Part shown: one piece after another, positions 12,768-53,560 of the stretch
How the letters are laid out: every line of letters starts with the position of its first letter
Numbering within the stretch: the first letter of the stretch is position 1
Origin: Candidatus Omnitrophota bacterium
Lineage (GTDB): Bacteria > Omnitrophota > Gorgyraeia > Zapsychrales > Zapsychraceae
Assembly (NCBI GenBank): GCA_003528115.1
Contig: DOGZ01000012.1
Span: 2,095 to 66,094 of the forward strand
Length of the DNA stretch: 64,000 nt
Reading direction: 5' to 3'
Made by a program: the position numbers and the translations under genes
Notes under the pieces: generated by a model
Told to the model about the DNA's origin: nothing
Databases searched by the model: none
What the model saw: the letters and a program-made list of their open reading frames with translations, nothing else

Positions 12768-12811
12768 CCAATCCCCTGTCGCCGGGGTATTCGTCCCTGA
12801 TCCCTTGGTGT

Positions 12812-15579: not shown

Positions 15580-15591
15580 TAAGGAGCGCCT

Positions 15592-17273: not shown

Positions 17274-17289
17274 CCTCGTGTTCCATTAC

Positions 17290-17562
17290 TTTTGCGAAAG
17301 TCCGTAGTCCTGTGTCAACTCAATGGTAGATTGTTTGACACAGCACAACACTGCGCCTTTTCTGAAAAATATTTATTGAAAGCTAATTTGACGGCGCAGT
17401 GGAAATCATTTCATCGACACGAATTTATATACGTTTTCTACCTTTTAATGCGGATTTCCTTTTACTGACTTCCGCAAAAGCAATGAATCACTATGGTAGT
17501 CAGCATCTCGACCTCCGTCCGCTGGATGGTTTAATTCTATTCCTTGTGCGGAGGTCAATAGG
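17290..17562 (+). repeat. Structured intergenic repeat, copy 1 (carries about 100 nt extra relative to copy 2)
   Basis: It shares several segments with 25398..25592: ttttgcgaaagtcc, a hairpin, acaacactgcgccttttctgaaaa, aatttgacggcgcagt, and the core ctgacttccgcaaaagcaatgaa-cactatggtagtcag-atctcgacctccgtccgctggatggtttaattctatt..ttgtgcggaggtcaata. Confidence 0.8.
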
Positions 17563-17916
17563 CGCCCGGAGGGAAGCGGTTTTCTTCTTTCGGTCCATCA
17601 AAGAAACCCCGACGAGCGCATAGCTGGCGGTTGCCTTCCTTTCCACCCGAATCACTTTGACGCGGCCTTTGAAGATATCCAGGACGCCGGACATCACCAC
17701 GCGGATTTCCAGGACATCCCCTTTTTGGTATTCCTGATCCGTGTAAAATGATAACCCGCCGATACTCATATCCTGGGTCGTTGATAAAAACGAATCCCGT
17801 TGCAGATCCTTGCGCTTGCTTTCCTTAAGACTGTATTCAATACTCAAGACCCGCCTCGCCCGGACCCATTGACGGCGTTCACCGGCCGCTTGTTTAACCA
17901 CTGCTTGTTTAACCAT
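17500..17916 (-). CDS. PilZ-domain protein (c-di-GMP binding)
   Basis: RARRV...DMSIGGLSF matches the PilZ RxxxR / DxSxGG motifs. The start is assigned to the internal Met, MVKQAVVKQ, to avoid overlap with ald. The last about 19 codons, IDLRTRNRIKPSSGRRSRC, are encoded by the repeat element. Confidence 0.6.
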   Translation of the reverse strand: MVKQAVVKQAAGERRQWVRARRVLSIEYSLKESKRKDLQRDSFLSTTQDMSIGGLSFYTDQEYQKGDVLEIRVVMSGVLDIFKGRVKVIRVERKATASYALVGVSLMDRKKKTASLRAPIDLRTRNRIKPSSGRRSRC

Positions 17917-17929
17917 GCGCTCCCTTCCT

Positions 17930-19033
17930 TTATAAAGATTTCCATGAAAGACCGAACGTTTCGGCCACCTCTTGAATGACCAACTCCCCATCGCGCATAT
18001 TCACGGACCGTTTCAAGGCAAAGATATTCCGGACAGCTTTCTCATAACCGTTGTTGGCAAGTAATAAAATATACGGAAGTGTCGCATTCGTCAAGGCGTA
18101 TGTGCTTGTCCGGGCGACAGCTCCGGGCATATTGGTCACGCAGTAATGCACCACCCCGTCGACAACATAGGTGGGGTTGTCGTGGGTCGTGGGACGGCTG
18201 GTCTCGCACGAACCTCCTTGATCAATGGCCACATCCACGATCACGGCCCCGGTCTTCATTTGAGACACGAGCTCACGGCTGATCAAACAAGGGGCCTTGG
18301 CCCCGCGCTTGAGCACACTGCTGATGACCAAATCCGCCTTCAACACACTGTCCCGGATCGTGTAACTGTTGCTCATCAGGGTATGGACATTAGGCGGCAT
18401 GATCTCATCCAAATACCTCAAACGGTTGAGATTTACATCCATGACCGTAACATTAGCCCCGAGACCCGCCGCCATCTTGCAGGCATTGGCACCGACCACG
18501 CCGGCCCCGATAATCACAACATCCGCCGGGATCACCCCCGGGACGCCTCCCAAAAGGATTCCCCTTCCTTTCATAGGCTCCTCAAGATACTTGGCCCCCT
18601 CGTGAACGGCCATGCGGCCCGCCACCTCACTCATGGGCGTCAAACAGGGCAACTCTCCGCTTTCTAATTGAAGGGTCTCGTAGGCCATGGCGACAATCCG
18701 GGAAGCCAGCAGGGCCTCCGTCAATGACCGACTGGCGGCGAAATGAAAATACGTAAAGACGATCTGACCGGGCCTTAACAACGCGTATTCCCCTTCCTGC
18801 GGCTCTTTGATCTTGACAATCATCTCGGCCTCGGCATAAATCTCCGCCGGAGAATCCAGAATGACCGCCCCCGAGGCCTGATATTCCCCGTCCGTAATAC
18901 CGCTCCCCAGCCCTGCGCCCTTCTCTAGGTAGACTTTATGCCCGTCCCGCTTGAGCATGTCCACCCCCACAGGTAAAAGGGCCACCCGGTATTCATTGTT
19001 TTTGATTTCTTTAGGGACACCGATAATCATCAT
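17930..19033 (-). CDS. ald: Alanine dehydrogenase
   Basis: N-terminus MIIGVPKEIKNNEYRVALLPVGV. GAGVVGANA is the NAD-binding motif. Confidence 0.9.
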   Translation of the reverse strand: MMIIGVPKEIKNNEYRVALLPVGVDMLKRDGHKVYLEKGAGLGSGITDGEYQASGAVILDSPAEIYAEAEMIVKIKEPQEGEYALLRPGQIVFTYFHFAASRSLTEALLASRIVAMAYETLQLESGELPCLTPMSEVAGRMAVHEGAKYLEEPMKGRGILLGGVPGVIPADVVIIGAGVVGANACKMAAGLGANVTVMDVNLNRLRYLDEIMPPNVHTLMSNSYTIRDSVLKADLVISSVLKRGAKAPCLISRELVSQMKTGAVIVDVAIDQGGSCETSRPTTHDNPTYVVDGVVHYCVTNMPGAVARTSTYALTNATLPYILLLANNGYEKAVRNIFALKRSVNMRDGELVIQEVAETFGLSWKSL

Positions 19034-19053
19034 GGAATAAACCTGTTATTTTT

Positions 19054-20442
19054 CTACCGTGGACCGAGCATTTCTTCCGGACGGACCAATTTATCAAAAT
19101 CTTCAGGACTTAAAAAGCCCAAAGCCACGGCGGCCTGTTTCAAGGTGATATGTTCGGCGTGCGCTTTTTTCGCCACCTTGGCGGCCTTGTCATACCCGAT
19201 ATGAGGATTGAGCGCGGTCACGAGCATCAAAGAACCGTTGAGATGACTCTGGATTCTTTCTTCATTGGCCTCGATGCCCACCACACAATGTTCCGTAAAA
19301 CTTGCGCAGGCGTCGGCGATCAGACGGATGGATTGAAGGAGATTATAAATGATGACCGGTTTAAAGACGTTGAGCTCGAAATTCCCGCTGGCGCCGGCAA
19401 AGGCGATCGTGGTGTCATTGCCCATCACCTGGACGCAGACCATGGTCATGGCTTCACATTGAGTCGGGTTGACCTTGCCGGGCATGATGGAGCTTCCCGG
19501 TTCATTCTCCGGTAAGGTAATCTCCCCGATGCCGCATCGCGGACCGGAACCGAGCCACCGGATATCATTGGCGATCTTCATCAGCGAAGCGGCGATGGTT
19601 TTTAAGACGCCGCTGAACTCCACCATCGCGTCGTGGGCCGCCAGCGATTCAAATTTATTCACCGCCGTGATAAATGGAAACCCGGTCAATTCCTGTATTT
19701 TCTTAGCCGCCTGGACGGCAAAGCGCGGGTGCGTATTCAATCCCGTTCCAACGGCCGTCCCCCCCAGCGCCAATTCATACATTCTCGGCAAGGCCCCTTC
19801 GATCCTTCTTAATCCATTTTCCAACTGCCGGACATATCCTGAAAATTCATGCCCCAGCGTCAGAGGGGTCGCGTCCATCAAATGGGTGCGTCCGATTTTG
19901 ATGATATTTTTAAACTGCTCCGCCTTGTGTTTTAACGCCTCGCCTAATCGCGTGACCGCGGGGATTAACTTTTCATGGATCTGCAGAACGCTCGCGACAT
20001 GCATGGCCGTCGGAAAGACATCGTTGGAAGACTGGGCCTTATTGACATCGTCATTGGGATGAATCAAGGTCTTGTTCCCCATTGCCCCGCCGGAAAGTTC
20101 TGCCGCGCGGTTGGCGATGACCTCATTGACATTCATGTTGGTCTGCGTGCCGCTGCCTGTCTGCCAGATCACCAACGGGAAATGGTCCTGCCACCGGCCC
20201 GCGATAATCTCATCGGCGACGTTGGCAATCAGATCCGCCTTCTGTTTCGGTAACGTCCCCAGTTCCTGATTCACCAGGGCCGCCGCCTTCTTGATAATTG
20301 CCAGGGCCCTGATCAGCTCCGGAGGCATCACCTCACCGCCGATCTTGAAATGGATTAACGATCGGGCCGTCTGGGCGCCGTAATATTTATCCGCCGGGAC
20401 TTGGATTTCTCCCATGGAATCCGACTCTAAGCGATAGTTCAT
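19054..20442 (-). CDS. fumC: Class II fumarate hydratase
   Basis: [20 protein letters not shown] is the fumarate lyase signature. Confidence 0.88.
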
Positions 20443-21731: not shown

Positions 21732-21775
21732 TGTCACAGTAAAATGTCACAGCATGTCACAGTAGCGTGTCACAG
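21732..21775. repeat. Direct-repeat array of 4 x TGTCACAG
   Basis: TGTCACAG occurs at 21732, 21745, 21755 and 21768, spaced 13/10/13 nt apart. The array spans the fic stop codon and lies about 150–190 nt upstream of the lipoprotein gene start. Confidence 0.8.
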
Positions 21776-22819
21776 TAAAACGTAGTGCTTGGTCGGATCA
21801 GTGGCGCTCTTGGCCACGATTTTAATGACCTTTTTCTCGACCAATTCTTCTAAATCCCTCTGAGCCGTACGCCGGATACAAGATGCGACAGACTGATACT
21901 CATTGACGGAGAGCGTGCTTTTAATAATAAGGTGCTTAACCGCTTTCTCCTGACGCTTATTCAAACCGATCTTCTTAATCTTTTGAAACTGGCTATCCTG
22001 TTTAATCAACTGTTCGCCTTTAGCCTGAATCTCGGTCATCTGCGAACGCAGGCCGTCAACGAAGTATTCAATCCATGTGGTCATGTCCATGTTATTCTTG
22101 CGGACGGTCTGGATGGCCTGATAATAGCTCGGACGGTCTTTGTCGTAATACTCCGAAATAGTAAAAAGGCGTTTAAAATCATAGCCGGTCTTGTAGAGGA
22201 TGAGCGTTGAAAGAAGCCGGGCCGTCCTGCCGTTGCCGTCGATGAATGGATGAATATGCACAAATTGAAATTGAGCGATACCAGCCACAAGGATAGGCGA
22301 CACATCCTCAGCCTTACTTACCCACTCCGTAAACTCCCGCATAAGATGCGGAACATCCAAAGGCCCGGGCGGAGTATAAACAACCTCACGTGTGCGGGAA
22401 TTGACGACATAGTTTTGTATCTTGCGGTAATTGCCCGGGTCTGCGTTTTCGCCACGGACGCCTTTAACGAGAATCTTGTGAAGCTCCCGGACAATGCCTT
22501 CCGAAACCGGATCGTCTTTGCCGAGATACTTTGAAATAAAATCCATTGCCTTCTTGTAATTCAAAAGCTCCCGCTCATCATCACGATTTACGCCCTTGAC
22601 CTTTCCACCTTCCAAGATGCTCTTGGCCTGCTCAAGGCTTAGGGCTGTGCCTTCAATATGCGTGGAATGGTGCGATTCAAGGATAAGCGCCTTTTTCTGC
22701 ATGTCGGCGATCCAGTCGTCCTTGAGCTTAACCGCATCCAGAAAGCCCCGCACCCGCTCGATCTCAACGAGCGCCTTATTGATCTTTGGTGTGATATTAA
22801 ATTTTGGGGCAAATGCCAT
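21770..22819 (-). CDS. fic: Fic-family protein (AMPylation / phosphocholination fold) with a C-terminal winged-helix domain
   Basis: HPFIDGNGRTARLL is the canonical Fic motif HPFx[DE]GNGR. The ATG one codon into the TTG-initiated ORF is preceded by an AGAGAGG ribosome-binding site. Confidence 0.85.
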   Translation of the reverse strand: MAFAPKFNITPKINKALVEIERVRGFLDAVKLKDDWIADMQKKALILESHHSTHIEGTALSLEQAKSILEGGKVKGVNRDDERELLNYKKAMDFISKYLGKDDPVSEGIVRELHKILVKGVRGENADPGNYRKIQNYVVNSRTREVVYTPPGPLDVPHLMREFTEWVSKAEDVSPILVAGIAQFQFVHIHPFIDGNGRTARLLSTLILYKTGYDFKRLFTISEYYDKDRPSYYQAIQTVRKNNMDMTTWIEYFVDGLRSQMTEIQAKGEQLIKQDSQFQKIKKIGLNKRQEKAVKHLIIKSTLSVNEYQSVASCIRRTAQRDLEELVEKKVIKIVAKSATDPTKHYVLL

Positions 22820-23051
22820 CAATTACCTCTCTAATCCAAGCAAACGTTTAATTTCTTTAATTCCGCATCAATCGATCCGAGAATCTTGACTGAAGAAACA
22901 TACTGAGAAGCATTCTCATCGGCATAAACACAGTCGAACGGGCGATACCCCATAACCCCATCGCAAAACCGCCAATGACGGCGTAACGGAATTCTCGCTT
23001 GAGAAACGTTTTAAGAGGAGTTCAAGGGTAATCTTAAAATCCATCCAGTGC

Positions 23052-30828: not shown

Positions 30829-33800
30829 TTAATGATTTGTGTTGATTAATTCCAAAGACCCCTCTATCTCCTGATTTAATTCATCCATGTTCTTGGAGCG
30901 ATCAGATATTTTCTGTTCAAGAAGCTTGTTTTTCTCCTGCCCGGCCTGAATCTGTTTCTTATAATCTTCTGTTGCCTCCTCGAGTTTACTCGTCAAGGCG
31001 TTAAGCCTCTTAATTTCATTCTCTAAAACGAATTGACTCTCTTTGATTCTTTGATCCAGAGTTTGTCGCGTTTCCTGATTCAAATTTTCCAGTTTGGCGA
31101 TTTTTTCCTGAAGAGGAATTTTTGCCGCCTCTACTTTATCCGACATGCTCAATTGCGCCCTCTTAAGCTCATCGGTCAGCGACTTCTTTTCTCCTTCTAA
31201 CTTCTCTAACCGCTGATTAAGATCGGCGCGTTCCTTATTGAGATTCTCCATCAATTGATTTCTTTCTTTTAATAATCGCTCCATGTTATTCACGCGTTCC
31301 TGCAAAACAACGAAGTCATTAGCCAGATTTATCTTAACTTGATCTGTTATTAGTAATTTATGTTGAAGATCCTTCTCGGATTTCTCAATATGGCTAATCA
31401 GTGAATCTTTGCTGTTGATCATTTCCTGCATCTGACCAACTTTTTCTTCCGCGCTCTTCAGAGAAGCCTCCAGGGGCATCTTGGCCTTAGCGACCCTCAA
31501 CCCAACGTTGGATTCCAGATCGGCCTTTTGGGTTTTCAAATCTTGAAGCTCCATTTCGATATTTTGCTTCCCTTGTGTTAAAACCTCTATCTCTTGGGCA
31601 AGTTTACCTTTCTCGCCGGCTAAACCGGCTGATTGAACGTCTTTCTGTTTAACGAGTTCTGAAGTCTCATGCAACTGTTGTTCCAATACCGTGATCTTTT
31701 CCTGCAAAGAGACTTTGACCATTTCAACTTTATTCTGCCAAACAACTTTGATACTCTTCAATTCATCAGATAATTCTGCAATACGATCATTTAAAGAAGC
31801 CCTTTCCTTTTGTGTCATGAGCAATTCATTCTTTAATCCGGTTTTCTCATCTTCCAACTGCTTAAACAATTGTTCTTTTTGATTTAAGACATTAACACGG
31901 CTCTGAACATTCTGCTCTAATTTCAACATCGCCTCTATCAGTGGCTGTTTTGCCTCGGCGATCTGAGCCGCGACAGAGCCTTTGAGGCTGCGCCAATTTC
32001 CTTGCAATATCTCGGCATTCTTTAACAAATCGAAATTTTTTGCCTGAAGATAACTGATATCTCTCTTTAAAGTGTCATTAACACCTAAAATTTCTTTGAG
32101 CTTGTTTTCGCTTTCTAAAACCAATCCTTGAATACTCTGTTTTTCTTCCTCTAATTGGGTGACACTTTGCCGCAGAGGTTCCTGAACCTCTTTTAATTCA
32201 AGCAGCCTTTGGTCCTGAAGTTCCTTCATTTGATTTTCTAAGCCGGATATCTTCTGATTTAACGGTTGTCGCGTCTCTTCAACCTTCTGATTCATCAGGG
32301 CTTCGGTGTTCTTGAGTTTGTCCGTCAATGAAACGATTGTTTTCTCAAAAGCGCTCTTCTCTGATAAAACCGCGTTATAATTTTTGCTAAGGATGTCCTT
32401 GTCCCCTTTCAGAGTTTGAATAAGAGCTTCTTGATCTTGCGCTAACTGCCGACTTTTTTGAAGTTCCCCCGCGCTCATCTGAAGTGTTTTTTCTAAAAGC
32501 TTTTGAGCTTCTGTAATTTTCTGAGTTATTGACGCGCGCAGGTTTTCCAACGCCTCTTCTTTCTCTTTCAATTGATCTTCCACGGTAACTTTTTCCCCCT
32601 TCAAGGCAACAGACACCTTGATTAAGGCCTCTCGCTCTTTCATGAGATCTTCCGCGTAAACAATTTTTTCTTTTAAGAGGCCTTCAGAGGCTCTTAATTT
32701 TTCTTCGAGAGATTTTATCACGTCTTGAAGGGGAGCCTTGGCTTCTGAAATCTTCGACGGAATTTCTGACTCGACGGCCTTTGAGCGCTCATCCAAAGCC
32801 CTAATATTACTTTGTAAAACGTCTTTTTCTTGATTAAGCGCAACGATCTGTTGGGTCAGAGTCTCTTTGTCTTTAAAAACGCCCGCCATGATCTTTTCAT
32901 TCTCACGGATAACATTTTCCTGGGTTTTGAGAGTGGCATTAAGATTTTGTATTTGATCCTTCAAAGGAGCTTGCGCCTTGGCAATCTCATCAGGAATAGA
33001 ATCCTCAACTTGCTTTGCCTTGGCTTTCCAATCTTCAAAACTTTTTGAAAGACCGGAACTGTCTTGCTGAATTGCCGCATATTGCTTTGTCAAATCCTCA
33101 TACTGTCCCTGGGCATCTCGTAACTGGTCGGCTTGATTTTTAAGAAGGGCATCTTTTTCCGCCAAAACTGTTTTCAGGGAGGCGTTCTCATTCTCCAATG
33201 AGGATTGGGCTGCCGCGATCTTAGTTGGAACGGATTTTTGGAGTTCATCCAATTGTGCCGTCCGACGCGTAATTTCTTGCTGCAAATCTTTGTTCTGATT
33301 CATGGCCTTTTCTAAATCGCCTTTTAAGGCCACATGCTTGCGGCCTAATTCTCCGACAGATTTCTCTTTTGATTTTATCGTCCCCTGGACATTGCTTAAA
33401 TTTTCCCTAAGGGTCTTGAGCTCATTCTGCAAAGGATTTTTCGCCGCCTCTATCTGTTGAGGGATATTCGATTCTGTTTGAAGCAAGGCATTCTTTAACG
33501 TTATTTTGTCATTCTCACTTTTTTTCAATTCAAGACTCAATAATTCTTTGGCTTGAATAAGTTCATTGATGGCTGTCTGTTTTGCCTGAACAAGATTTTC
33601 CGTATCTAATAACCGCTTTTCCAGAAATCGGACACTTTTCTCTAACGGCGCTTTTTTCTCGGCAATATGAACTTGGATCGACGCCTGGGTTTCCTTAAGT
33701 TTGTTCACGGAATCCGAAAGTTCAAGACTCAAATCCTCGCGTTCCTTTTGGATTTTCTCCAAATCACCGGACAATAACGCCTTGGCTTGAGACAATTCCA

Positions 33801-36800
33801 CATTCTCGGACTCCTTATTTTTTAAAGCCGCCTCTAAATTATCGCGCTGCGCTTCCAATTGAGTTATCTTGTTTTGAAGCGTCGTCTTGTTTTGATCCAT
33901 TTGTTGAGAAGCCGAGATCTCCTGCTGACGCAACGTTTCTCTAACCAATTTCAGTTCTTGCGTAAGATCGGCATTCCGGCTTGTTCTGTCGTTGAGATCC
34001 TGGCTCAATTGGACAAGGCGCTTCTGAAAATCATTGATTTGAGATTCTTTTTGGGCAATCGATTTTCCTGTCTCAGATAATCGCGCGTTTAAATCTGCGA
34101 TCTCCTTTCTCAGCGGCGATTGAATATCTTCCACCTGTTTGGCAAACGCGTCCTTTGTCTGACTCAATTGTGTCTGAATCGCCTCAAATTTACCGGCCAA
34201 AGCCCCTTGTTCCTCGTTTAAGCTCTTCAAGGCGTTATCCGCCGTCTTCTTTTCATTGGTCACCTTGGTTAATTGGCCCTGTCTGATGAGAAGATCTTCT
34301 TCAAGGGCATTAACCTTCTCCTTTAACATCTTGATGCTCTCTTCTAAAGGTTTCTTTTCTTCAAGAATGCGCTCTTGAAAAGAATTTTTCCTTTCCACGA
34401 CTTCTTCCTGCAATAAATTCTTTTCATTGAATAACTTCGTCTGCTCTTCCTGAAGGGCCTTCATATCCTTATCCAGTTTTCTCATCGCGTGATCTTTTTC
34501 AACCAGGAGTTGCGTGGACTCATTAAATTTAGCTTCTAACGATTGCAATTGTTTCTTCAGCGTGTTTTCAGCGTCGGCAACTTTTTGAGGCAATAACTCC
34601 TCCGCAATTTTTATTTTTTGCTTTAACCCGGTCATCTCCGTTTCCAGGCCGGCCTTTTGATTTTGTAAATTAACTAAGGACGCATTAAGGGTGCCCTGTT
34701 GGCTGTTAAGATTATTGATAAAGGCCTCCCTCTCATGCATCAGACCTTCCGTCTCATTTAATTTTTCGACCAAAGCGGAATTTTCTTTCTCCAAAGGCAG
34801 TCTTACGGCATTAATCTTATTCTTGACAGAGGCCTCTAATTCTTGCAAGTGACCTTCTAAATCCTTAATCTTATTTTCCAAAGGCGCTTTAACCTGAAGC
34901 AATTTTTCCTGCACAGCCGATTCAGAGGCCTGAATTTTACTCTTATAAATCTCGAGTTCAGCCGCCAAGGATTCTTTCTCCTGTCCGTTTTGGCTGAGTT
35001 CCCGTGCAATATCATCTTTTTCTCCGGAAAGCCGCTTGAATTGAACATCCTTTTCTTTGATACTACTTTCCAGTAATTGCAAATTCTTTTCTAACTCAAC
35101 GACCTTCTGCGCCAGTTGGGTCCTTGCCTTTTCGACCATGCCTGGAATTTCTCCTTGAGTTTCTTTCAATTTCAGGGTTGCCTGATCTAAGGCCAGACTC
35201 AGCCGATTCTTTACCTCCTCACTTTGACTAAGCTGTTGCGCCAGGCTTTCCTTCGTCGTCGATAACTGTTTTAAACTTGTCTCTTTTTCCTTAATCCCGT
35301 TCCCCAGCTCTTCAAGCTGTTTCTTTAATCCCGCGATCTCTTCGGCCAGCGGGCCCTTCGCCTTCTCGATCATCTCGGGTACAGACCCTTCAGTCTCTTT
35401 TAACTTCGCGGTTAATTGATCGAGTTCAACACTCAATCGTTGCTTTTCTTCTTCACTTTGCCCAAGCGTTTTGACGATCCCAGCCTTCTCTTGCGTCAAT
35501 TGATTTAAACTCGTCTCTTTCTCCTTTATCCCGTTCCCCAGCTCTTCAAGCTGTTTCTTTAATCCCGCGATCTCTTCGGCCAACGGGCCCTTCGCCTTCT
35601 CGATCATCCCAGGCACCGACCCCTGCGTCTCTTTTAACTTTGCGGTTAATTGATCGAGTTGCGCGCTCAGACGTTGCTTTTCTTCTTCGCTTTGCCCAAG
35701 CGTTTTGACGATCTCGGCCTTCTCTTGCGTCAATTGATTTAAACTCGTCTCTTTCTCCTTAATCCCGTTCCCCAGCTCTTCAAGCTGTTTCTTTAATCCC
35801 GCGAGCTCTTCAACCAACGGGCCCTTTGCCTTCTCGATCATCCCAGGCACCGACCCCTGCGTCTCTTTTAACTTTGCGGTTGATTGATCGAGTTCAACAC
35901 GCAACTGTTTTTTTTCTTCCTCGCTCCGGTTAAGTTGTTTTACTATGTCCGTTTTTTCTTTCTCTAATACGCTCAATATTCCTTCTTTTTGCTTTATGTC
36001 TTCCTGTAAACTTTTAAGAGTTGCCTGTAAAACATTGACCTGCTCGTTCCAAGAAGATTGAGACTTTGCCAATTCATCCGCTGATTCAGCCTCACTCATT
36101 TTCAACTTTTCTTTTAAAAAAATAATCTCTTGTTTCAAAGACTCTTGTTGGCTCCTCCCCTCATCGAGTTGAGTGAGGACATCAGCATGTTCTTTAGTCA
36201 ATTTGGCTAAATTAGCCGAATACAATTGAACGTCGTTTTCCGAAACCTTTAACTTTTCCGAAAAGGCCTGAATTTTATTTTCCAGAGGGAGCTTCGCATC
36301 AGCCGATTTCTTTACAAACTCTTCCTCTTTAATCCTCAACGTCTCGCGTAGCCCGGCAATTTCCTGGTTGAGGGAAAGCCGCTGTTTTTCGCTTTGTTGA
36401 AATTGAAGCCTAACTGAATCTCTTTCTTGGGCCAGTTGATCCAGGCTGGAATTTCTACCGGCAATTTCGACATCAGTCTTTTTTAATTTGTTTTCCAAAT
36501 CCCTTAATTTTTCCTCCAACCCCTTCGTGAGCTGATCGATTTTATCCGCGGCCCCTGACTTCTCAATGCCCAATTCCTTCTGTAAAGAGGCGATCTGTTC
36601 AATGAACAATTTCTTTTCATATTCCAAATTACCCAACTGTTTTCTTAAACCTGCTTTTTCTTGATTAATCTTTTCTAACTCCTCGCTCTTCTGTTTCAGC
36701 TCTGTTTGAACGGCCTCCACCTTTTCTTCCAAACTTTTAAGACGTTCCGTCAAAGGAGCTCTTTCCTTAGCCAGACGCTCCGGCATCTCGGCCTCAATGC

Positions 36801-39800
36801 CCTTTAACCGTTCCGCTAGACTGATGAGTTCTTTATTTATGACTTCCCGATTTTGTTCACTTTGTTTTAACTGACCCGCAAGGGACTGCTTATCTTGATT
36901 GAGGGTGTTTAACTCATCCGCCTTGGCCAAAACTGTTTGTCCGGCGGTATTTAATTGCTCACGCAGATGCTTAATTTCATCCTCCAGAGACGTCTTCGCC
37001 TGGGCTAGTTGGACAGTAAAATTTTCTTCATTAGTTTTCACTTTTGCTTTCGCGCCCGCCAACTCTTTAGAAATAGTTTCTTTCTCCTGCTTTGCTTGAT
37101 CGATTTGTTTAAGAATCCCCTCGTTTTGTTTTAATAATTTGTTTAACCCATCCTCTTTTTCCTGGACATGACCTTCGGCCGCTTTTAATTGTTCTTCCAT
37201 TGATTGAATCTTGGTCTCTAATAAGATCTTGGTGGTCGCCAGTTGATCCGACCATTGCTTTTCTTTTAGGCCGGCGTCATTCTTTAGACTGTCCATTTCA
37301 GCGCGGAGCGTTTTCTTTTCCTCTTCGCGTTGAGCCAATTGAAAGCTGATATCATTCTTTTCCTTATTCAAATTGTCTAAAACGGTCTTCTGGTCTTTAA
37401 CCGCGGAGTCTGTTGCCGCCATTTTTTTTTCCAATACAACTATTTGTTCCTTCAGGGTCGCCTTCACCTTTGAAACCTTGTCAAAGCCCTCTGATTCCAT
37501 CGTCCTCAATTTCTCTTTTAGAACCGAAACCTCTTGCTTCAAGAATTCTTTTTCTTTACTCGATTGCGTAAGTTTTTCTGCCAAGAAAATCTTCTCTTGC
37601 TCCATCTGCCATGTGGCCGACTTCATTTTCTCAATATCTTTGTCTTTTAGAACCAATTGATCATTCAATTGCTTGATGCTGGCTTCTAAAGGCGATTGAA
37701 CTTCCTGGATCTTTTGAGAAAATGTCTTTTCTGACTCATCGGCTTGCTTTTTTAAAAGGTCGAATTCTTTGCTTAACGTCTCTTGCTGAGCCTTTAAATC
37801 ATTTAATTCAACTTCAATAAAACCCTTTTCGCTGCTCAACTTTATGGCCAAATCATTTTTCTGTTTGATCTCAGTCTCTTTTTGCTGAAGGCCGGCTTGC
37901 AGATCGCCTATCTTATGTTCCATGGAAGCCTGAAGCGTTTTCATATCTTCCTTGTACGTCTTCTGCGCCTCATCGAATTGAACTCTTAAAACACCGATCT
38001 CTTTTTCTAAAGGAGCTCTGGCTTTGTCGATCCTTTCGGCCGCTTCCCTTTCGGTTGCCTGAAGTTGTTCAACCAGAGAAACAATGCGTTTTTCCAAATC
38101 GGATTTTTCAGACTGCGCATTTTTGAGCCGCTTATCGGTTTCCTCTTTCTTGACGGTAACATCTTTGATCGCGGCAGCTCTTTCATTAACCACACGCTCT
38201 TTCTCAAGAAGCTGACTTTCCAATAACTTTATTTTAGTTTCCAAAGGCGCCCTGCCGCCTTGAACTTTTTCATTAACACCCTTTTCGGCAGCGAGGATCT
38301 TATTTTGTAACACCTCTATCTGAACCTGGAATGGTTTTCCCGCATCTACAATTTCTTGAGATACCCGGGACTCATTTTTAGATAGTTCTTCTTTTGTAAC
38401 GGCAACTTGCAGCTCCAACGCTTCTTTATCTTTGACAATTTTATTTAAATCCCCTCTTAGCATTTCTTGCTCATTCTGGAGTTGATCAATAAGAAAATCC
38501 TTTTCTTTGATCTGTGTCGCCGTTGCCTGAACTTCTGTCCGCAGATCTTCCACCTTCTTCAATAACGGGGCCTTCTGCAACTCGACCTCGGCCTCATATT
38601 TCTTTTTGGCTTCTTGAATCGTTTGTTCTAACGTGAGAATTTTATTCTCCAGCGGTGACTTGGCCGCGGCTATTTTCTGAGTCAATGAATCTTCAACGTT
38701 TTTCAATTTCTGGTTTAATTGGGATAAATCATCGTTCAATTGCCCCTGCTTCCGAGTACTGGCCAAAAGATCATGATCCAGCTTGGTTTTTTCATGAGCC
38801 AAAGACACGATTTGATTTTCCTTGTCCTGGATAATGTCTTCCATGTCCCTCAACTTCTTCTTTAAATCATCCATCTCACCTTTTAATGCCGACACCTTCA
38901 AAACAACATTCTGCTGATAGGAGTTCTCCGCGGACGACAATTTCTCTTCAAGTGTTTTTATTTTTTCCTTCAAAGGGGCTTGAACCTCAACGATTTTCTT
39001 TTCATGCAGGGATTCCGCTTCTTTAAGCTTGTTTTTAAGGCCTTCCAACTGTTCGGCCAGTTGTTGGCTTTCCTTTTTAGAAAGCGAGAGCTCTCCCGAC
39101 AAAGAATCTTTTTCGCGTTTCAAATCCGTAGCGGCTGACTTTTGGGCCTGAACAACCTCCTGCATACTTTTAATTTTTTCTTCAAGGTCATGAACGCCCC
39201 GCTTATAATCCGCATTCTTTTCCTCAAGTTTTACTCGCGTCACTTCATCGCTTTTCCGTAATTTATCTTCCAAGTCTTTGATTTTTACCTCAAGTGGCGC
39301 CTTACTTTCTTTCACCAATTCATCTAGGGATTGCTTAGTCCCCTGGACTTTTTCCTTAATAGAGAGAAGCTCGCCTTCCAACTGTTCTTTTTTAGACAAA
39401 GCCTCGGCCAAATCCCGATGAACAGTTTGAAACTTTAAACTCAACTTTCTAAACTCATTTTCCTTCTCAATAATGAGGTCTTCGGAAAACTGCAACTTTT
39501 TCTCCAGGGAAAATATCTCATTCTTCAGAGGGATTTTCGCTTCTTCCATTTTATGAAAAAGTTCTGTTTGAGAAGCCTTGACTCTTTCATCCACACGGAC
39601 TTCCATTTGATCTAATTCTTTTTTCAATGATTCAATCTTTTGCTCTAAAGGAACTCTGGCCTCATGTAATTGAAATTGGAGACTTAATTCATTATCTTTG
39701 AGCCTGTCCCGAAATATCTTTAAATCATTCTGTAAAGAAATCTTTCCCTGCCGAATCGTCATCACTTGGTTGATGAGAGATTTCTTCTGAAGGGTCAATT

Positions 39801-40176
39801 CCTTAATCTTGGCCTCGTTTTCAAAGGAATACACATCCGTATGCTGCAGTTTCCACTGAAGAGACATGATCTCTTTTTCAAGAGACTCCTTTTTCTTAAT
39901 CATCTTATTAACCTCTTGGCGTAAATAATCCTTCTCGCTGATGAGATTCTCAATTTCAATCTCTTTGCTCTTCAGGATGCCTCCAAGATCTTCAAGAGAA
40001 TCTTCCGTTGAGGCCACTTGGGCGATAAGAATATCCTGCGGTTCCTGCCGTCTTCCATCGCGGAATTGCCCGTTCCCAGTATCGACAGCCCCCCAACTCC
40101 TCCCTGGGGAGAACGGAAAAGATAATAAAAAAATAAAACCTAAACTGACATAAAATAAACGTTGACTATTTTTCAT
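30829..40176 (-). CDS. Giant (3115 aa) secreted coiled-coil repeat protein of unknown function
   Basis: Signal peptide MKNSQRLFYVSLGFIFLLSFPFSPGRSWGA. The remainder is Glu/Lys/Leu/Gln-rich heptad coiled coil, broken roughly every 75–110 aa by a motif such as AKAPLEvKIkdLEdKL. About 35 such modules are present. No enzymatic or anchoring motif was seen. Confidence 0.85.
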   Translation of the reverse strand: MKNSQRLFYVSLGFIFLLSFPFSPGRSWGAVDTGNGQFRDGRRQEPQDILIAQVASTEDSLEDLGGILKSKEIEIENLISEKDYLRQEVNKMIKKKESLEKEIMSLQWKLQHTDVYSFENEAKIKELTLQKKSLINQVMTIRQGKISLQNDLKIFRDRLKDNELSLQFQLHEARVPLEQKIESLKKELDQMEVRVDERVKASQTELFHKMEEAKIPLKNEIFSLEKKLQFSEDLIIEKENEFRKLSLKFQTVHRDLAEALSKKEQLEGELLSIKEKVQGTKQSLDELVKESKAPLEVKIKDLEDKLRKSDEVTRVKLEEKNADYKRGVHDLEEKIKSMQEVVQAQKSAATDLKREKDSLSGELSLSKKESQQLAEQLEGLKNKLKEAESLHEKKIVEVQAPLKEKIKTLEEKLSSAENSYQQNVVLKVSALKGEMDDLKKKLRDMEDIIQDKENQIVSLAHEKTKLDHDLLASTRKQGQLNDDLSQLNQKLKNVEDSLTQKIAAAKSPLENKILTLEQTIQEAKKKYEAEVELQKAPLLKKVEDLRTEVQATATQIKEKDFLIDQLQNEQEMLRGDLNKIVKDKEALELQVAVTKEELSKNESRVSQEIVDAGKPFQVQIEVLQNKILAAEKGVNEKVQGGRAPLETKIKLLESQLLEKERVVNERAAAIKDVTVKKEETDKRLKNAQSEKSDLEKRIVSLVEQLQATEREAAERIDKARAPLEKEIGVLRVQFDEAQKTYKEDMKTLQASMEHKIGDLQAGLQQKETEIKQKNDLAIKLSSEKGFIEVELNDLKAQQETLSKEFDLLKKQADESEKTFSQKIQEVQSPLEASIKQLNDQLVLKDKDIEKMKSATWQMEQEKIFLAEKLTQSSKEKEFLKQEVSVLKEKLRTMESEGFDKVSKVKATLKEQIVVLEKKMAATDSAVKDQKTVLDNLNKEKNDISFQLAQREEEKKTLRAEMDSLKNDAGLKEKQWSDQLATTKILLETKIQSMEEQLKAAEGHVQEKEDGLNKLLKQNEGILKQIDQAKQEKETISKELAGAKAKVKTNEENFTVQLAQAKTSLEDEIKHLREQLNTAGQTVLAKADELNTLNQDKQSLAGQLKQSEQNREVINKELISLAERLKGIEAEMPERLAKERAPLTERLKSLEEKVEAVQTELKQKSEELEKINQEKAGLRKQLGNLEYEKKLFIEQIASLQKELGIEKSGAADKIDQLTKGLEEKLRDLENKLKKTDVEIAGRNSSLDQLAQERDSVRLQFQQSEKQRLSLNQEIAGLRETLRIKEEEFVKKSADAKLPLENKIQAFSEKLKVSENDVQLYSANLAKLTKEHADVLTQLDEGRSQQESLKQEIIFLKEKLKMSEAESADELAKSQSSWNEQVNVLQATLKSLQEDIKQKEGILSVLEKEKTDIVKQLNRSEEEKKQLRVELDQSTAKLKETQGSVPGMIEKAKGPLVEELAGLKKQLEELGNGIKEKETSLNQLTQEKAEIVKTLGQSEEEKQRLSAQLDQLTAKLKETQGSVPGMIEKAKGPLAEEIAGLKKQLEELGNGIKEKETSLNQLTQEKAGIVKTLGQSEEEKQRLSVELDQLTAKLKETEGSVPEMIEKAKGPLAEEIAGLKKQLEELGNGIKEKETSLKQLSTTKESLAQQLSQSEEVKNRLSLALDQATLKLKETQGEIPGMVEKARTQLAQKVVELEKNLQLLESSIKEKDVQFKRLSGEKDDIARELSQNGQEKESLAAELEIYKSKIQASESAVQEKLLQVKAPLENKIKDLEGHLQELEASVKNKINAVRLPLEKENSALVEKLNETEGLMHEREAFINNLNSQQGTLNASLVNLQNQKAGLETEMTGLKQKIKIAEELLPQKVADAENTLKKQLQSLEAKFNESTQLLVEKDHAMRKLDKDMKALQEEQTKLFNEKNLLQEEVVERKNSFQERILEEKKPLEESIKMLKEKVNALEEDLLIRQGQLTKVTNEKKTADNALKSLNEEQGALAGKFEAIQTQLSQTKDAFAKQVEDIQSPLRKEIADLNARLSETGKSIAQKESQINDFQKRLVQLSQDLNDRTSRNADLTQELKLVRETLRQQEISASQQMDQNKTTLQNKITQLEAQRDNLEAALKNKESENVELSQAKALLSGDLEKIQKEREDLSLELSDSVNKLKETQASIQVHIAEKKAPLEKSVRFLEKRLLDTENLVQAKQTAINELIQAKELLSLELKKSENDKITLKNALLQTESNIPQQIEAAKNPLQNELKTLRENLSNVQGTIKSKEKSVGELGRKHVALKGDLEKAMNQNKDLQQEITRRTAQLDELQKSVPTKIAAAQSSLENENASLKTVLAEKDALLKNQADQLRDAQGQYEDLTKQYAAIQQDSSGLSKSFEDWKAKAKQVEDSIPDEIAKAQAPLKDQIQNLNATLKTQENVIRENEKIMAGVFKDKETLTQQIVALNQEKDVLQSNIRALDERSKAVESEIPSKISEAKAPLQDVIKSLEEKLRASEGLLKEKIVYAEDLMKEREALIKVSVALKGEKVTVEDQLKEKEEALENLRASITQKITEAQKLLEKTLQMSAGELQKSRQLAQDQEALIQTLKGDKDILSKNYNAVLSEKSAFEKTIVSLTDKLKNTEALMNQKVEETRQPLNQKISGLENQMKELQDQRLLELKEVQEPLRQSVTQLEEEKQSIQGLVLESENKLKEILGVNDTLKRDISYLQAKNFDLLKNAEILQGNWRSLKGSVAAQIAEAKQPLIEAMLKLEQNVQSRVNVLNQKEQLFKQLEDEKTGLKNELLMTQKERASLNDRIAELSDELKSIKVVWQNKVEMVKVSLQEKITVLEQQLHETSELVKQKDVQSAGLAGEKGKLAQEIEVLTQGKQNIEMELQDLKTQKADLESNVGLRVAKAKMPLEASLKSAEEKVGQMQEMINSKDSLISHIEKSEKDLQHKLLITDQVKINLANDFVVLQERVNNMERLLKERNQLMENLNKERADLNQRLEKLEGEKKSLTDELKRAQLSMSDKVEAAKIPLQEKIAKLENLNQETRQTLDQRIKESQFVLENEIKRLNALTSKLEEATEDYKKQIQAGQEKNKLLEQKISDRSKNMDELNQEIEGSLELINTNH
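35283..35985. repeat. Three near-identical 234-bp tandem repeats inside the giant gene (78-aa modules)
   Basis: The units begin at about 35293, 35527 and 35761. Only a handful of substitutions separate them. Each encodes GSVPGMIEKAKGPLxEExAGLKKQLEELGNGIKEKETSLNQLTQEKAxIVKTLGQSEEEKQRLSxxLDQLTAKLKETQ. Confidence 0.85.
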
Positions 40177-40297
40177 CGATCTTCTGATTCCCTTCCATGA
40201 GATTTGTCATAATTTCCAGTTTTTCCTTCAAATGAAGAATCGTAGTGCGCACGTTGGCCAATTGTCGCTGCTGATCTTCTTCCTCATTGATTTTCAT
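40166..40297 (-). CDS. Possible 43-aa upstream ORF translationally coupled to the giant gene
   Basis: MKINEEEDQQRQLANVRTTILHLKEKLEIMTNLMEGNQKIDEK. Its TAG stop overlaps the giant gene start in the sequence ATGAAAAATAG. Confidence 0.2.
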   Translation of the reverse strand: MKINEEEDQQRQLANVRTTILHLKEKLEIMTNLMEGNQKIDEK

Positions 40298-40550
40298 GAC
40301 TTTTAACTTATCCACATCGGTTTTAAGCGCTGTTGAAAAAATAACGTCTCTTGACCTACGCAGTAGTAAAGAACGCGCATGGGGAGAAAGACAACCAAAA
40401 TGTTTTTTTACTTACGGAAAGCAGTAAGATAAGGATTCGTTTTAACATGAACCGTCTCTCAGGATTAAAATGATCTGTGGGTGATCAAAGAAGAATTAGA
40501 AATTAACTGACTTTCGCGCGAGTAGCACAAAATTAGTCTTGAGAAAGTAA

Positions 40551-41847: not shown

Positions 41848-42510
41848 TCACGGGGCCTCAGATAAAACAAATTTTACCGGGATGCGAACCCTGGAAGAAA
41901 TTTTTCTGGCTCCAATGTGGGCCGCGGCAAATTCCCACTTTCTGACAACTCTTAACGCAAAGTCATCCAGAATTTTATGTCCAGAACTTTTTTCAACAGA
42001 AACCTCACTGGCGCGCCCATCTTTTTTTACATTGACCTGAAGATAAACCGTTCCCTCCCATCCCAACTTCCTCGCCAATTTCGGATAGACCGGGGGCGGA
42101 TTTATAATGGGCACTGGCTTAGTTACGGAGAGTGCCCCTTGAAAGGATTTACTTGAAACGGTTTTGGAAGAACTTCTTCTTGCAATGGATTGAGCAACTG
42201 AAGCTGTCTTGGTGGTGTTATTTTCCGTGTGCGCATTTTGAAGATAATGGCTGGAGACAACGCTTTTGAATACCTCTTCCCCTTGAACTTTCTGCTGAAA
42301 GTGTTTTGTATTCCCGATCTCTTGTTCCTTTCCCGGGGGATGTTCCGCTTCGACAATCTCAAATTCAATGCTATTGGGGGCTTCCCTGACGGCAAATATC
42401 GGTGCGGGTTGGCTTAAAAAGCCGATCTTAAAGATAAGCAAATGGATGAAAATCGAGAATAAGATAAACCGATAGAACCCGTTTGAACACTCCCTAAAGG
42501 AAGGAGTCAT
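41848..42510 (-). CDS. tonB: TonB-family energy transducer (C-terminal TonB domain)
   Basis: An N-terminal TM helix and a Pro-rich linker (PPPVYP) precede the C-terminal domain, GWEGTVYLQVNVKKDGRASEVSVEKSSGHKILDDFALRVVRKWEF. The start is set at the internal Met to avoid overlap with fur. Confidence 0.7.
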   Translation of the reverse strand: MTPSFRECSNGFYRFILFSIFIHLLIFKIGFLSQPAPIFAVREAPNSIEFEIVEAEHPPGKEQEIGNTKHFQQKVQGEEVFKSVVSSHYLQNAHTENNTTKTASVAQSIARRSSSKTVSSKSFQGALSVTKPVPIINPPPVYPKLARKLGWEGTVYLQVNVKKDGRASEVSVEKSSGHKILDDFALRVVRKWEFAAAHIGARKISSRVRIPVKFVLSEAP

Positions 42511-42962
42511 GGTTTGGGGGACGAAGGACCGCATTTTTTACATAAACCAAAAATTTCCAGCCGATGTTTTTTAGGATGGAAGCCAGAGGCTTCAGATAAT
42601 TTGTGACTCAGTCTTTTTATGTTTTTATCAAAGACTTCAAAATGATATCCGCAATCCGTACAAATAAAATGAGCGTGGTATTCTCGTCCCATCTTTCGCT
42701 CAAACCTCTTGACGCCATCGTCAAAATCCACCTCTTCGGCCAAACCGCTGGAGACAATGAGTTTGAGAGTGCGATAAACCGTTGTAGCTCCGATTTCCGG
42801 ATGTTTCTTTCTGACGATTTGAAAAAGGTCATCAACGCTGACATGCCTAGTAGTCGATAAGAACACCGTGATAATATAATCACGCTTTTGGGAATGTTTG
42901 AGACCTTTCTTGGAAATGTGTCGATCGAATATTTCTAATTCTTTGACGGTATCGTTTGTCAT
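42507..42962 (-). CDS. fur: Fur-family metalloregulator
   Basis: HAHFICTDCG...GLCKKCG is the Fur metal-site pattern. A winged-helix N-terminus is present. Confidence 0.85.
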   Translation of the reverse strand: MTNDTVKELEIFDRHISKKGLKHSQKRDYIITVFLSTTRHVSVDDLFQIVRKKHPEIGATTVYRTLKLIVSSGLAEEVDFDDGVKRFERKMGREYHAHFICTDCGYHFEVFDKNIKRLSHKLSEASGFHPKKHRLEIFGLCKKCGPSSPKP

Positions 42963-52054: not shown

Positions 52055-53548
52055 TTACTTTTTCAGCCACTCAGCCACATCATTTGAAAACTGAGACGGG
52101 ATACTATTTCTTTTGATGATCTCCTGATCGACGACATCAATTTTTTCATTATCAAGAATAACCTGCACTTTATGCTCTGTTTCAATGACCGTAAATTTTA
52201 CTTTTCGCTTGATTTCGTTGATAAGCAAAACAAACTCTTTAAATGAATTAAATTTTTTCCCGTTGACGGTCTCGATAATATCATCGCCATATTCATGATA
52301 ACCGGCATTAATATCATCAGATAACACATCAAGGATCACAACTAAATCATTACGGCCTTGTCTGTTCAACCGACCAGAACCAAGTAGATAATAGTTAAAA
52401 TCCAAAGGGGCCTTCTCCCACCATTCGTTCCCCCAGGATCTTAATAAATCCGACGTTAATACCGTAAAGACCATCCCACCGTAAATAAAATACGGCGGCT
52501 TTTTATAATATCTCGGATAAGGAACTAATGTCGCGAAAGGTTTTAGGGTGACCGAAATATTCTTGATCTTTCCTTCCCGCATAACTTTTAAAGGAATTTC
52601 TTCCCCTATCTGTTTTTCAGTAATTAAATGGGACATGATGAGCCGTTCCTTCCCCCGGAAGGCAAAAGTCCCATCCTCGCCAATGGGCACCCCAGAAATC
52701 TCAAGAACGACATCCCCTTCTTTTAAACGATCAACGGCAGGTGAAAAAGGCAAAACCCGCGTCACAAGGATACCGCCATTTTCATTCTTGATTTTATAAA
52801 AGTTTCTAAGTGTGGTGTTCTCTGTATTATTAAAATCGATTCCCAAGACAGGAAATCCATCATATTTTCCGTCATCCAAATCATTCAAGAAATGCTCTAT
52901 AATGGGGACCGGAATCATATAACCAATATTTTGTCCGGCCTGATAAACTTGCATGGCAACTCCAACAAATTTCCCATCCTGGACAACCGGTCCCCCGCTA
53001 TTGCCTGGATTAATAGCCGCATCAATCTGGACAGTTAATAACTTTCGGTTACTCTGAGAATAGGCTGTCACTTCAACGCGCGAGACCACGCCTTCTGTGA
53101 TCGAAAGCATGTCCCCTCCTTCCGGATAACCCAGAACGGAAACGGCATCTTGCAGTTTAGGCAATCCGCCGAATTCCAAAGGCGATGTGCCTTCAAAAAA
53201 TTGCGGGTCATCCACCGTCAGAATGGCTAAATCACAATCATGTCCCATGGCCAACACCTTAGCCGTATATTTCTTTGGATCAGCATCTTTTCGTACCTGA
53301 ATAAAAGTTTGGTCAGCAATAACATGCGCGTTCGTCAAGATTTTATTCCCTTTGATAATGCTGCCCGAGCCACTGGCTCCCCTAATTCCCAATGATTGCC
53401 AGGGCCGGTAATAATCTGTCGGATTGGCGGTGACAAAAATTTTGACAACCGACGTCGTAGATTGACCGGCATGAAGAGCCGATGCCATCATCAAGATAAG
53501 AAATAACAACGCCGCAATATATTTCCCAATGGGTCTCATAAAATGCAC
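52055..53548 (-). CDS. HtrA/DegP-family periplasmic serine protease with PDZ domains
   Basis: The catalytic triad blocks are TNAHV, D and GNSGGPV. C-terminal PDZ-like regions are present. Confidence 0.85.
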   Translation of the reverse strand: MHFMRPIGKYIAALLFLILMMASALHAGQSTTSVVKIFVTANPTDYYRPWQSLGIRGASGSGSIIKGNKILTNAHVIADQTFIQVRKDADPKKYTAKVLAMGHDCDLAILTVDDPQFFEGTSPLEFGGLPKLQDAVSVLGYPEGGDMLSITEGVVSRVEVTAYSQSNRKLLTVQIDAAINPGNSGGPVVQDGKFVGVAMQVYQAGQNIGYMIPVPIIEHFLNDLDDGKYDGFPVLGIDFNNTENTTLRNFYKIKNENGGILVTRVLPFSPAVDRLKEGDVVLEISGVPIGEDGTFAFRGKERLIMSHLITEKQIGEEIPLKVMREGKIKNISVTLKPFATLVPYPRYYKKPPYFIYGGMVFTVLTSDLLRSWGNEWWEKAPLDFNYYLLGSGRLNRQGRNDLVVILDVLSDDINAGYHEYGDDIIETVNGKKFNSFKEFVLLINEIKRKVKFTVIETEHKVQVILDNEKIDVVDQEIIKRNSIPSQFSNDVAEWLKK

Positions 53549-53560
53549 ATCCCCGCCTCT

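Follow-up and report, generated by a model that had tools for sequence, protein, structure and literature searches.

Fibrous surface proteins are known to vary in length and antigenicity by gaining and losing modules in frame. The streptococcal M and M-like proteins are size-variable coiled-coil surface fibrils with a signal peptide, irregularities in their heptad pattern and recombining in-frame repeats. They are about 400–600 amino acids (aa) long, belong to Gram-positive bacteria, are anchored through an LPXTG motif and contain repeat blocks of 7–40 aa, the number of repeats setting the length of the fibre. The alpha C and Rib proteins of group B streptococci, like other adhesins with long identical tandem repeats, carry nearly identical in-frame repeats of about 79–82 aa (about 240 bp) that vary in number and cause trouble in assembly; these repeats consist of beta-rich Ig-like domains, and the identity among them is typically almost 100%. 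Here we describe a block of 234-bp tandem repeats inside a very long gene, hereafter the giant gene, of an uncultured Candidatus Omnitrophota bacterium (assembly GCA_003528115.1, contig DOGZ01000012.1). The analysed stretch, hereafter the window, is 64,000 nucleotides (nt) long and covers positions 2,095 to 66,094 of the contig. The block is probably a young, module-level tandem array in the gene for an exported, extended α-helical coiled-coil rod.

Like the M proteins, the product of this gene (the giant protein) combines a signal peptide with a predicted extended helical coiled coil and in-frame repeat blocks. It differs from them in its size of 3115–3271 aa, in its host, a diderm bacterium of the Planctomycetes–Verrucomicrobia–Chlamydiae (PVC) group (TonB and a Pom-type porin are encoded nearby), in lacking an LPXTG motif, in the 78-aa length of its module and in having no similarity to any Pfam family. 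Unlike the alpha C and Rib repeats, its units are helical, are 77–96% identical at the nt level and stand among about 37 diverged copies.

The tandem array and the protein that carries it

The giant gene and the parts of it discussed below are the following:

30829–40176, minus strand: giant gene, a single open reading frame (ORF) of 9348 nt encoding 3115 aa
40090–40176, minus strand: putative signal peptide, aa 1–29, MKNSQRLFYVSLGFIFLLSFPFSPGRSWG/AV, read from the translation
35270–35919, minus strand: high-identity tandem block found by Tandem Repeats Finder (TRF), period 234 bp, 2.8 copies
35887–36120, minus strand: module M, aa 1353–1430, the upstream flank of the array
35653–35886, minus strand: unit A, aa 1431–1508, in the module register
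35419–35652, minus strand: unit B, aa 1509–1586, in the module register
35185–35418, minus strand: unit C, aa 1587–1664, in the module register
34951–35184, minus strand: module D, aa 1665–1742, an older paralogue of the same lineage with 44–46% aa identity to A, B and C

The block is the single long-period array detected by TRF in the window (91% matches, no indels, score 1083). Since its period equals 3 × 78 and it lies within one uninterrupted minus-strand ORF, the repeat is in frame. An earlier note on this DNA had described three 234-bp in-frame tandem repeats that are nearly identical and differ by a few nucleotides. The repeats are real, in frame and far beyond chance; they amount, however, to 2.8 copies rather than three full units, and the differences are larger than claimed. 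In the register used in that note, with units starting at 35293, 35527 and 35761, there are 19 mismatches in 234 nt between units 1 and 2 (91.9% identity), and 54 and 49 mismatches in 234 nt between unit 3 and units 1 and 2, respectively (77–79% identity). Unit 3 has such low identity because the high-identity block takes in only its first ~140 nt and not the last ~90 nt. Sliding identity at an offset of 234 is 0.8–0.98 from about 35251 to 35640, and the longest exact match between adjacent copies in the window is 55 nt.

In the module register, A and B are 94% identical at the nt and 92% at the aa level. Unit C is 77–80% (nt) and 74–78% (aa) identical to A and B, the similarity being confined to the first 52 codons: this head of C matches the heads of A and B with 88–90% nt identity, and its last 26 codons match theirs with 55–59%. 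The last 26 codons of M are 63–67% identical to the A and B tails. Overall, the identity of copies in the window array is 77–96% over 2.8 copies. The sharp contrast with the other modules drawn in the earlier note was borne out, as the remaining pairs, among about 40 modules, share 14–41% aa and 35–53% nt identity.

The N-terminus of the giant protein has a basic start, a hydrophobic core and small residues ahead of the putative cleavage site. Among homologues, six of seven sequences start likewise; the seventh, P0004, is apparently truncated at the N-terminus. We infer that the giant protein is exported via a Sec-type signal peptide. The rest of the protein is a helix-former rich in K, E, L and Q, and its C-terminus (...NMDELNQEIEGSLELINTNH) has neither an LPXTG motif nor a hydrophobic tail. 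A motif, ...AKxPLExKIxxLE, recurs in it at spacings of 78, 156, 107 and 29 residues. Matches to a hidden Markov model (HMM) of the module, built from these motif-bearing segments, number 46 with partial ones included and cover everything from about residue 50 to the C-terminus. They correspond to about 40 modules, whose offsets are nearly always 78 aa and otherwise 71, 49, 40 or 29 aa.

The anatomy of the module was derived from 122 full-length HMM matches in seven family proteins, of which 95 are 78 aa and 20 are 71 aa long. The consensus of the ninety-five 78-aa modules is TLKEQLKETEASIPQKIAEAKKPLEEKIKSLEKQLKESEELLKEKEALIKQLSQEKEDLEKQLAALQEEKKKLEEELA. Hydrophobic core positions in these modules are 2, 6, 9, 13, 17, 20, 24, 28, 31, 35, 38, 42 and on, so that a module consists of two hendecads (positions 6–28) and eight heptads (2 × 11 + 8 × 7). 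Of the 78-aa modules, 37% have a proline at position 14 and 66% have one at position 23, in each case beside a core residue, within a proline-box motif S-I-P-x-K-I...A-K-x-P-L-E-x-K-I. The variant spacings follow the same arithmetic (71 = 78 − 7; 49 = 7 × 7; 29 = 22 + 7) and therefore correspond to indels in register-preserving pieces. The module thus obeys a clean design rule in which only whole-module or whole-heptad indels are seen, so that length can change without disturbing the register of the coiled coil.

AlphaFold2, run on aa 1431–1664 with an alignment of ten triple modules, predicted one unbroken helix spanning residues 2–233 with a mean pLDDT of 87.7 and dips to 83–85 at the proline boxes. 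From this model and the periodicity of the core, the giant protein would be an extended, segmented coiled-coil rod. An α-helix rises by ~0.148 nm per residue; at this canonical rise one module would add about 11.6 nm and the mature protein would measure about 0.46 μm. Since a module is made of hendecads and heptads, gain or loss of a whole module would keep the coiled-coil register and alter only the length of the rod.

Divergence among the copies was estimated by the Nei–Gojobori method as synonymous (dS) and nonsynonymous (dN) divergence, separately for heads (52 codons) and tails (26 codons):

Heads, A and B: 96.2% nt identity, dS 0.10, dN 0.025
Heads, B and C: 90.4% nt identity, dS 0.50, dN 0.025
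Heads, A and C: 87.8% nt identity, dS 0.55, dN 0.05
Tails, A and B: 88.5% nt identity, dS 0.51, dN 0.05
Tails, C and A or B: 55–59% nt identity

The dN/dS ratio among copies is about 0.05–0.25, and by these estimates the copies are under purifying selection. Synonymous sites are saturated between the remaining modules. By the same measure the array copies are clearly younger than the other modules and not uniformly recent. The recent expansion proposed in the earlier note is upheld to that extent; with synonymous divergence of 0.1–0.5 the array is not brand new. The patchy distribution of divergence suggests at least two events, or gene-conversion tracts.

A terminator scan of the plus strand found the same short hairpin with a T-run once per unit, at 35305–35319, 35539–35553 and 35773–35787. 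These were rejected as terminators, being a repeated motif on the strand opposite to the gene and a by-product of the repeat. A promoter scan across the giant gene gave no signal above shuffle level.

Array length among assemblies and alternative explanations

The source contig of the window is ENA ERZ27254745 k141_2788473 (119,987 bp). Other assemblies of the locus were reached by exact look-ups of neighbouring genes (citrate synthase, HD-GYP regulator and GHMP kinase); the near-identical fragments of the giant gene in NCBI were missed by a word-indexed protein search. Seven other assemblies were found, and outside the array they are 99.98–100% identical to the window. The flanks in NCBI MHFX01000022.1, for example, show 2 mismatches in 8578 nt on one side and none in 2404 nt on the other, and a Logan contig is 100% identical over 8318 nt. 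All seven assemblies have a gap of Ns, or a contig end or start, inside the array:

NCBI MHFX01000022.1 (L014): 9-N gap; gene annotated as ORFs of 1639 aa and 1556 aa
ENA ANAN16-1 scaffold_2348: 100 Ns replacing window positions 35448–35780
Logan SRR6482412_127: begins at window position 35317
NCBI MHGD01000080.1: begins at aa 1618
ERZ978281 k127: ends at aa 1564
ERZ909595 k127: one contig ends at aa 1592, another begins inside the array
ERZ27254739 k141: one contig ends and one begins in the array

The hazard for assembly predicted in the earlier note is therefore real. In ANAN16-1 scaffold_2348 (L015/L020/L027), as in L014, the public record splits the gene in two owing to the gap of Ns, here into ORFs of 1119 and 1514 aa, and there is a 1-nt indel relative to the window near 36832, which accounts for the 1119-aa truncation. 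Public versions of the giant gene are thus wrong or incomplete (split, gapped or truncated), and the sole continuous one is possibly two modules short. The few young module copies lie exactly where the assemblies break or differ by two modules, and any comparative or structural use of the protein needs a resolved array.

Two of these assemblies contain sequence that the window does not. The order in ERZ27254739 (L023) is M-A-B-X-A2, where X is a unit without counterpart in the window, QLTAKLKETQGSLPEMIENAKSPLAEEIIALKEKLNVLGNRINEKEVNLKRLSEENDGVVNDLSRAEGDRNRLSAALD, at best 76% identical at the nt level to anything there, and A2 is an A-like unit that follows X. The order in MHFX01000022.1 is M-A'-B'-X(part)-NNN-A2(part)-C-D. 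The succession B then X is accordingly seen in two assemblies and A2 then C in one. The end of L023 and the start of L014 after its gap overlap by 121 nt with zero mismatches. The joined ORF is 9816 nt long (3271 aa), has no internal stop and contains five units, A-B-X-A2-C, which TRF reports as 4.7 copies with 79% matches. It exceeds the gene of the window by exactly 468 bp (156 aa, two modules), with no other mismatch. The shared prefix of 4784 nt and suffix of 4698 nt together surpass the 9348 nt of the short form by 134 nt, and the longest exact run at an offset of 468 in the joined ORF is likewise 134 nt. Two perfect 134-bp direct repeats, offset from each other by 468 bp, are therefore present in the long form; taking out one of them together with the intervening sequence gives the sequence of the window. 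The repeated segment is found in the window as follows:

35393–35526, minus strand: 134-bp segment, single-copy in the window and present twice in the five-unit reconstruction

The missing 468 bp (the rest of the B tail, X and A2) would sit within or beside this segment. A separate 341-aa protein fragment with no contig on record, P0275, reads X-A-X-A-hybrid and has at least two X units; an even longer version of the array therefore exists somewhere. Two variants of the A tail exist: the window, L023 and L024 have ...SAQLD, and the metagenome-assembled genome (MAG) that contains MHFX01000022.1 shares ...SVELD with L022. As to the copy-number variation in 78-aa steps suggested in the earlier note, a difference in length between assemblies was established, which may be biological or an artefact of assembly, and the observed step is 156 aa (468 bp, two modules).

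The following history would account for the copies. Duplication of one- or two-module segments would have produced the array. The A-type units (A, B and A2, mutually 93–96% identical) would then have been partly homogenised by gene conversion. Unit C, which at the protein level is nearer to X (62% aa identity) than to D or M, may have begun as an X-type unit and had its head replaced by that of an A-type unit. Recombination between the 134-bp repeats of M-A-B-X-A2-C-D would then delete one repeat and the sequence between them.

Judged from the assemblies, the short form would be a true allele that arose by recombination or deletion and predominates in the sample of the window; we lean slightly towards this reading and hold it to be somewhat likelier than collapse during assembly. 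The contig name, k141, indicates k = 141, which is more than the 136 nt that link a base specific to B (35527) with one specific to C (35392), so the join of B to C should need read support. The sole continuous assembly is also the sole short-form assembly, and the two features together are as expected of a sample that lacks the 134-bp duplication. The competing explanation, less probable and still to be taken seriously, is that only a long array of five or more units is real, that the assembler crossed the 134-bp repeat and skipped the X-A2 loop, and that there is no variation in length. A collapsed loop classically leaves just such a pattern, in which the long form has lost exactly one repeat period from between perfect 134-bp repeats, and all seven other assemblies fail at the array. 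On the other hand, the final k of 141 is larger than the 136 nt that cover the repeat plus one diagnostic base on either side, the sister assembly L023, made by the same pipeline, resolved B then X without collapsing, and a long array that is clonal should have caused a break like those of the other samples rather than a clean 120-kb contig. Several points weigh against our reading of the locus. The contig of the window is the only one in which C comes directly after B; no other assembly has this succession. Assemblers that use multiple k values pass earlier contigs to later rounds, and a mis-join made below k = 134 could persist. With flanks that are 99.98–100% identical, the same strain was probably sampled each time, and in one population a fixed difference of 468 bp is less expected. 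The synonymous sites number only 33 in heads and 16 in tails, which leaves the two-step history weakly resolved. Finally, export and rod shape are both inferred, and the AlphaFold2 model is a monomer and silent on oligomeric state.

Two further explanations were considered. In one, which we regard as unlikely, the modules are old, are kept alike by gene conversion or by strong constraint on a binding surface, and do not vary in copy number in nature. It would fit the dS of about 0.5 between several parts of the copies, the low dN/dS and the patchy identity (96% between the A and B heads, 88% between their tails), as expected of conversion tracts. The closest full-length homologue, P0001 (locus L007), has its own pair of 99-aa near-duplicates (aa 1699–1896, 73% identity), which MAFFT aligned opposite units A and B. 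These could reflect an orthologous duplication hot spot or mere attraction in the alignment, which around the array is too weak to prove orthologous positions. Against a stable copy number speak the public sequences, in which a three-unit and a five-unit array were met besides a fragment that has X twice, and the perfect 134-bp repeats, which are good substrates for unequal recombination, as is generally known of RecA-dependent recombination. The other explanation takes the giant gene for a chromosome ATPase of the SMC/SbcC/Rad50 type with repeats in its coiled-coil arm, and we give it practically no credence. Homologues are labelled 'Exonuclease SbcC' and 'chromosome segregation ATPase' in public sources, and NCBIfam SMC models match the giant protein at E = 1e-64. 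SMC_prok_B, however, covers only model positions 232–449 of 1181, which are coil, with 218.7 bits against a cutoff of 567.35, and the Rad50 models reach 42–73 bits against cutoffs of 700–1087. In place of a Walker A head the N-terminus has a signal peptide, the protein ends in a short conserved helix, and the modules extend from about residue 50 as far as the C-terminus with no distinct central domain (hinge or zinc hook). The identity was therefore ruled out by the missing ATPase head domains and by matches confined to the coil and below cutoff; on the same grounds the SbcC and SMC names of the homologues are, by all sequence indications, composition artefacts and mis-annotations.

Protein family and genomic neighbourhood

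No Pfam family matches the giant protein at gathering score, and a profile search of the PDB with the module returned generic coiled coils only, the best being the S-layer stalk SlaB (E = 1e-5), which lacks the proline box. Distant homologues, 22–25% identical and 1738–4143 aa long, carry the module at 78- and 71-aa spacing in six cases (P0001–P0006). A search of 1.84 billion cluster representatives with the module profile gave 28 proteins at a threshold of E ≤ 1e-30 and 146 proteins at one of E ≤ 1e-10; a single protein contained as many as 56 module stretches. By its sequence the giant protein is a member of a small, unnamed family from Omnitrophota, defined here as the '78-residue proline-box module' family and marked by a signal peptide, a tiling module of 78 (or 71) aa with Pro14 and Pro23, and a conserved C-terminal helix. 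The motif of this helix, (N/E)E(I/L)xx(A/S)(L/M)(E/D)L(I/V), is present in the window protein, P0001, P0002, P0003, P0004 and P0011, and not in P0005 or P0006. Other family members have internal duplications of 71, 99, 209, 269 and 371 aa at 66–74% identity; duplication of modules therefore recurs in the family. A scan of GTDB genomes with a two-protein alignment found only two partial contigs, both from Omnitrophota and both cut by contig ends, and a scan of JGI metagenome contigs with aa 1275–1820 found only three distant relatives (24–32% identity). Literature searches returned no description of a 78-aa proline-box family.

In four homologous loci (L007, L008, L012 and L032) an intact gene for a secreted partner protein of 246–308 aa lies directly upstream and overlaps the start codon of the giant gene. 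The partner has a conserved N-terminal GEIINVNxxYKIAFxDL domain, without Pfam match, and a C-terminal coil; partners of the four loci match one another with E-values of 6e-39 to 3e-10. At the corresponding position, within 40166–40550 on the minus strand, the window has a 374-bp spacer with only two short ORFs:

40166–40297, minus strand: 43-aa ORF overlapping the ATG of the giant gene, a probable C-terminal remnant of the partner
40356–40448, minus strand: 30-aa signal-peptide-like ORF, MLKRILILLLSVSKKTFWLSFSPCAFFTTA*, a possible N-terminal remnant of the partner judged by position and composition only

Aligned to the C-termini of the partners, the 43-aa ORF scores 52–55 against 31 ± 5 for shuffles, a borderline result, and a tblastn search for a partner in the rest of the window was negative. 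Most of the partner gene seems to have been lost by deletion in the organism of the window, all assemblies of which share the partner-less state.

The order of genes in GCA_029261065.1 is ExbB-ExbD-TonB-SurE-response regulator/HD-GYP-partner-giant-...-citrate synthase, and in the window it is Fur-TonB-response regulator/HD-GYP-[374-bp spacer]-giant-GHMP kinase-epimerase-citrate synthase. The two loci are clearly syntenic. Genes for Fur/TonB(/ExbBD), SurE and HD-GYP (HD_5) proteins are found near family members in the window (41848–42962) and in L007, L008 and L032. This recurrence suggests a conserved neighbourhood, possibly with regulation linked to cyclic di-GMP or iron. The citrate synthase of the window is 100% identical to one in a 'Candidatus Omnitrophica bacterium' MAG, and its next named matches (72–81%) are all from Omnitrophota.

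Several other features of the window were recorded. At 2382–2969 on the minus strand, 28 kb from the giant gene, a CheX-like protein of 195 aa is encoded that is 38% identical (E = 2e-40) to the product of the gene directly downstream of P0005 in another genome. A 23-bp direct repeat, TGTCACAGTAAAATGTCACAGCA, present in 1.9 copies at 21732–21775, lies at the 3′ end of a Fic-domain gene (21770–22822, minus strand). At 52055–55093 on the minus strand a second coiled-coil protein (510 aa, with an N-terminal TPR repeat) is encoded beside an HtrA/DegP-like serine protease; tblastn found no relation of it to the 78-aa module family. A Mutator-family transposase gene (55497–56558, plus strand) lies on the opposite strand to the flanking minus-strand genes. 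Genes for a SET-domain protein (56588–57085), a Pom-family (Protochlamydia-type) outer-membrane porin (58953–60359) and an ankyrin-repeat protein (62699–63724) are near one another in a part where G+C content (GC) falls to 34–39%; these genes are eukaryote-like or typical of the PVC group. GC is 51–54% at 1–2000 and 10000–20000, where genes for sulfite reductase, transhydrogenase and fumarase lie, and 34–46% over the giant gene and everything beyond (30000–64000). Rfam and tRNA scans of the window gave no matches.

Comparison with known systems

Besides the streptococcal proteins, several groups of long coiled-coil or very large proteins resemble the giant protein in part. Like crescentin, Scy and FilP, it is a long coiled coil that mixes heptads with hendecad-type discontinuities in a regular period. 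Those proteins are cytoplasmic, have no signal peptide and show other periods, whereas the giant protein has a signal peptide; precomputed Pfam matches of its homologues to Rod_CreS and Filament are only 'faint' or 'weak'. Membership in this group was ruled out by the signal peptide and by the lack of any family model at gathering score. With SMC, SbcC and Rad50 it shares a very long coiled coil of antiparallel-type composition and strong but sub-threshold HMM matches, and it differs from them in having a signal peptide and no ATPase head, hinge or hook. Like the Braun lipoprotein Lpp and the Sulfolobus S-layer stalk SlaB (PDB 8qox, PMC10903991), it would be an exported coiled coil whose length sets a distance. 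Lpp and SlaB are much shorter (58–475 aa), the match to SlaB reflects generic coil similarity, and in the giant protein there is no evidence of an anchor.

Giant proteins of Omnitrophota, namely Archaeovorins, Dockerin-type proteins and tandem-repeat scaffolds, have been described (bioRxiv 10.1101/2023.11.21.568195; bioRxiv 10.64898/2026.06.07.730766; Seymour et al., PMC10066038). They are 10,000–147,000 aa long and contain transmembrane helices, HEAT, dockerin, TSP3 and enzyme domains (bioRxiv 10.1101/2023.11.21.568195, 10.64898/2026.06.07.730766); most are exported or membrane-associated, their role is unknown, with cell–cell contact suggested, and their repeats fragment assemblies. Neither of the two preprints (10.1101/2023.11.21.568195, 10.64898/2026.06.07.730766) mentions a coiled-coil class. 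The protein studied here resembles these giants in phylum, in large size and in repeats that break assemblies. It was not assigned to the Archaeovorins or the Dockerin type, being only 3.1–3.3 thousand aa long and purely coiled coil, with no Pfam domain.

Most Omnitrophota cells measure about 0.2 μm (PMC10066038). One can imagine the array as a length-tuning cassette in an undescribed family of exported coiled-coil rods of about 0.45–0.5 μm from such ultra-small (~0.2 μm) cells. Register-preserving recombination would generate length variants in the population in steps of about 12–23 nm, and the rod would serve as a surface tether or envelope spacer, for example in contact with a host or prey, acting with the upstream partner. 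Taken as a whole this proposal is speculative and improbable. If module gain and loss are real here, they act in a family that databases do not name. The phylum to which it belongs is made up of nanobacteria, and a part in cell–cell contact is suspected for their large exported proteins. Set beside the systems above, the behaviour of the tandem repeats is familiar for fibrous exported proteins; the coiled-coil family is undescribed, and its register-preserving 78-residue module is new.

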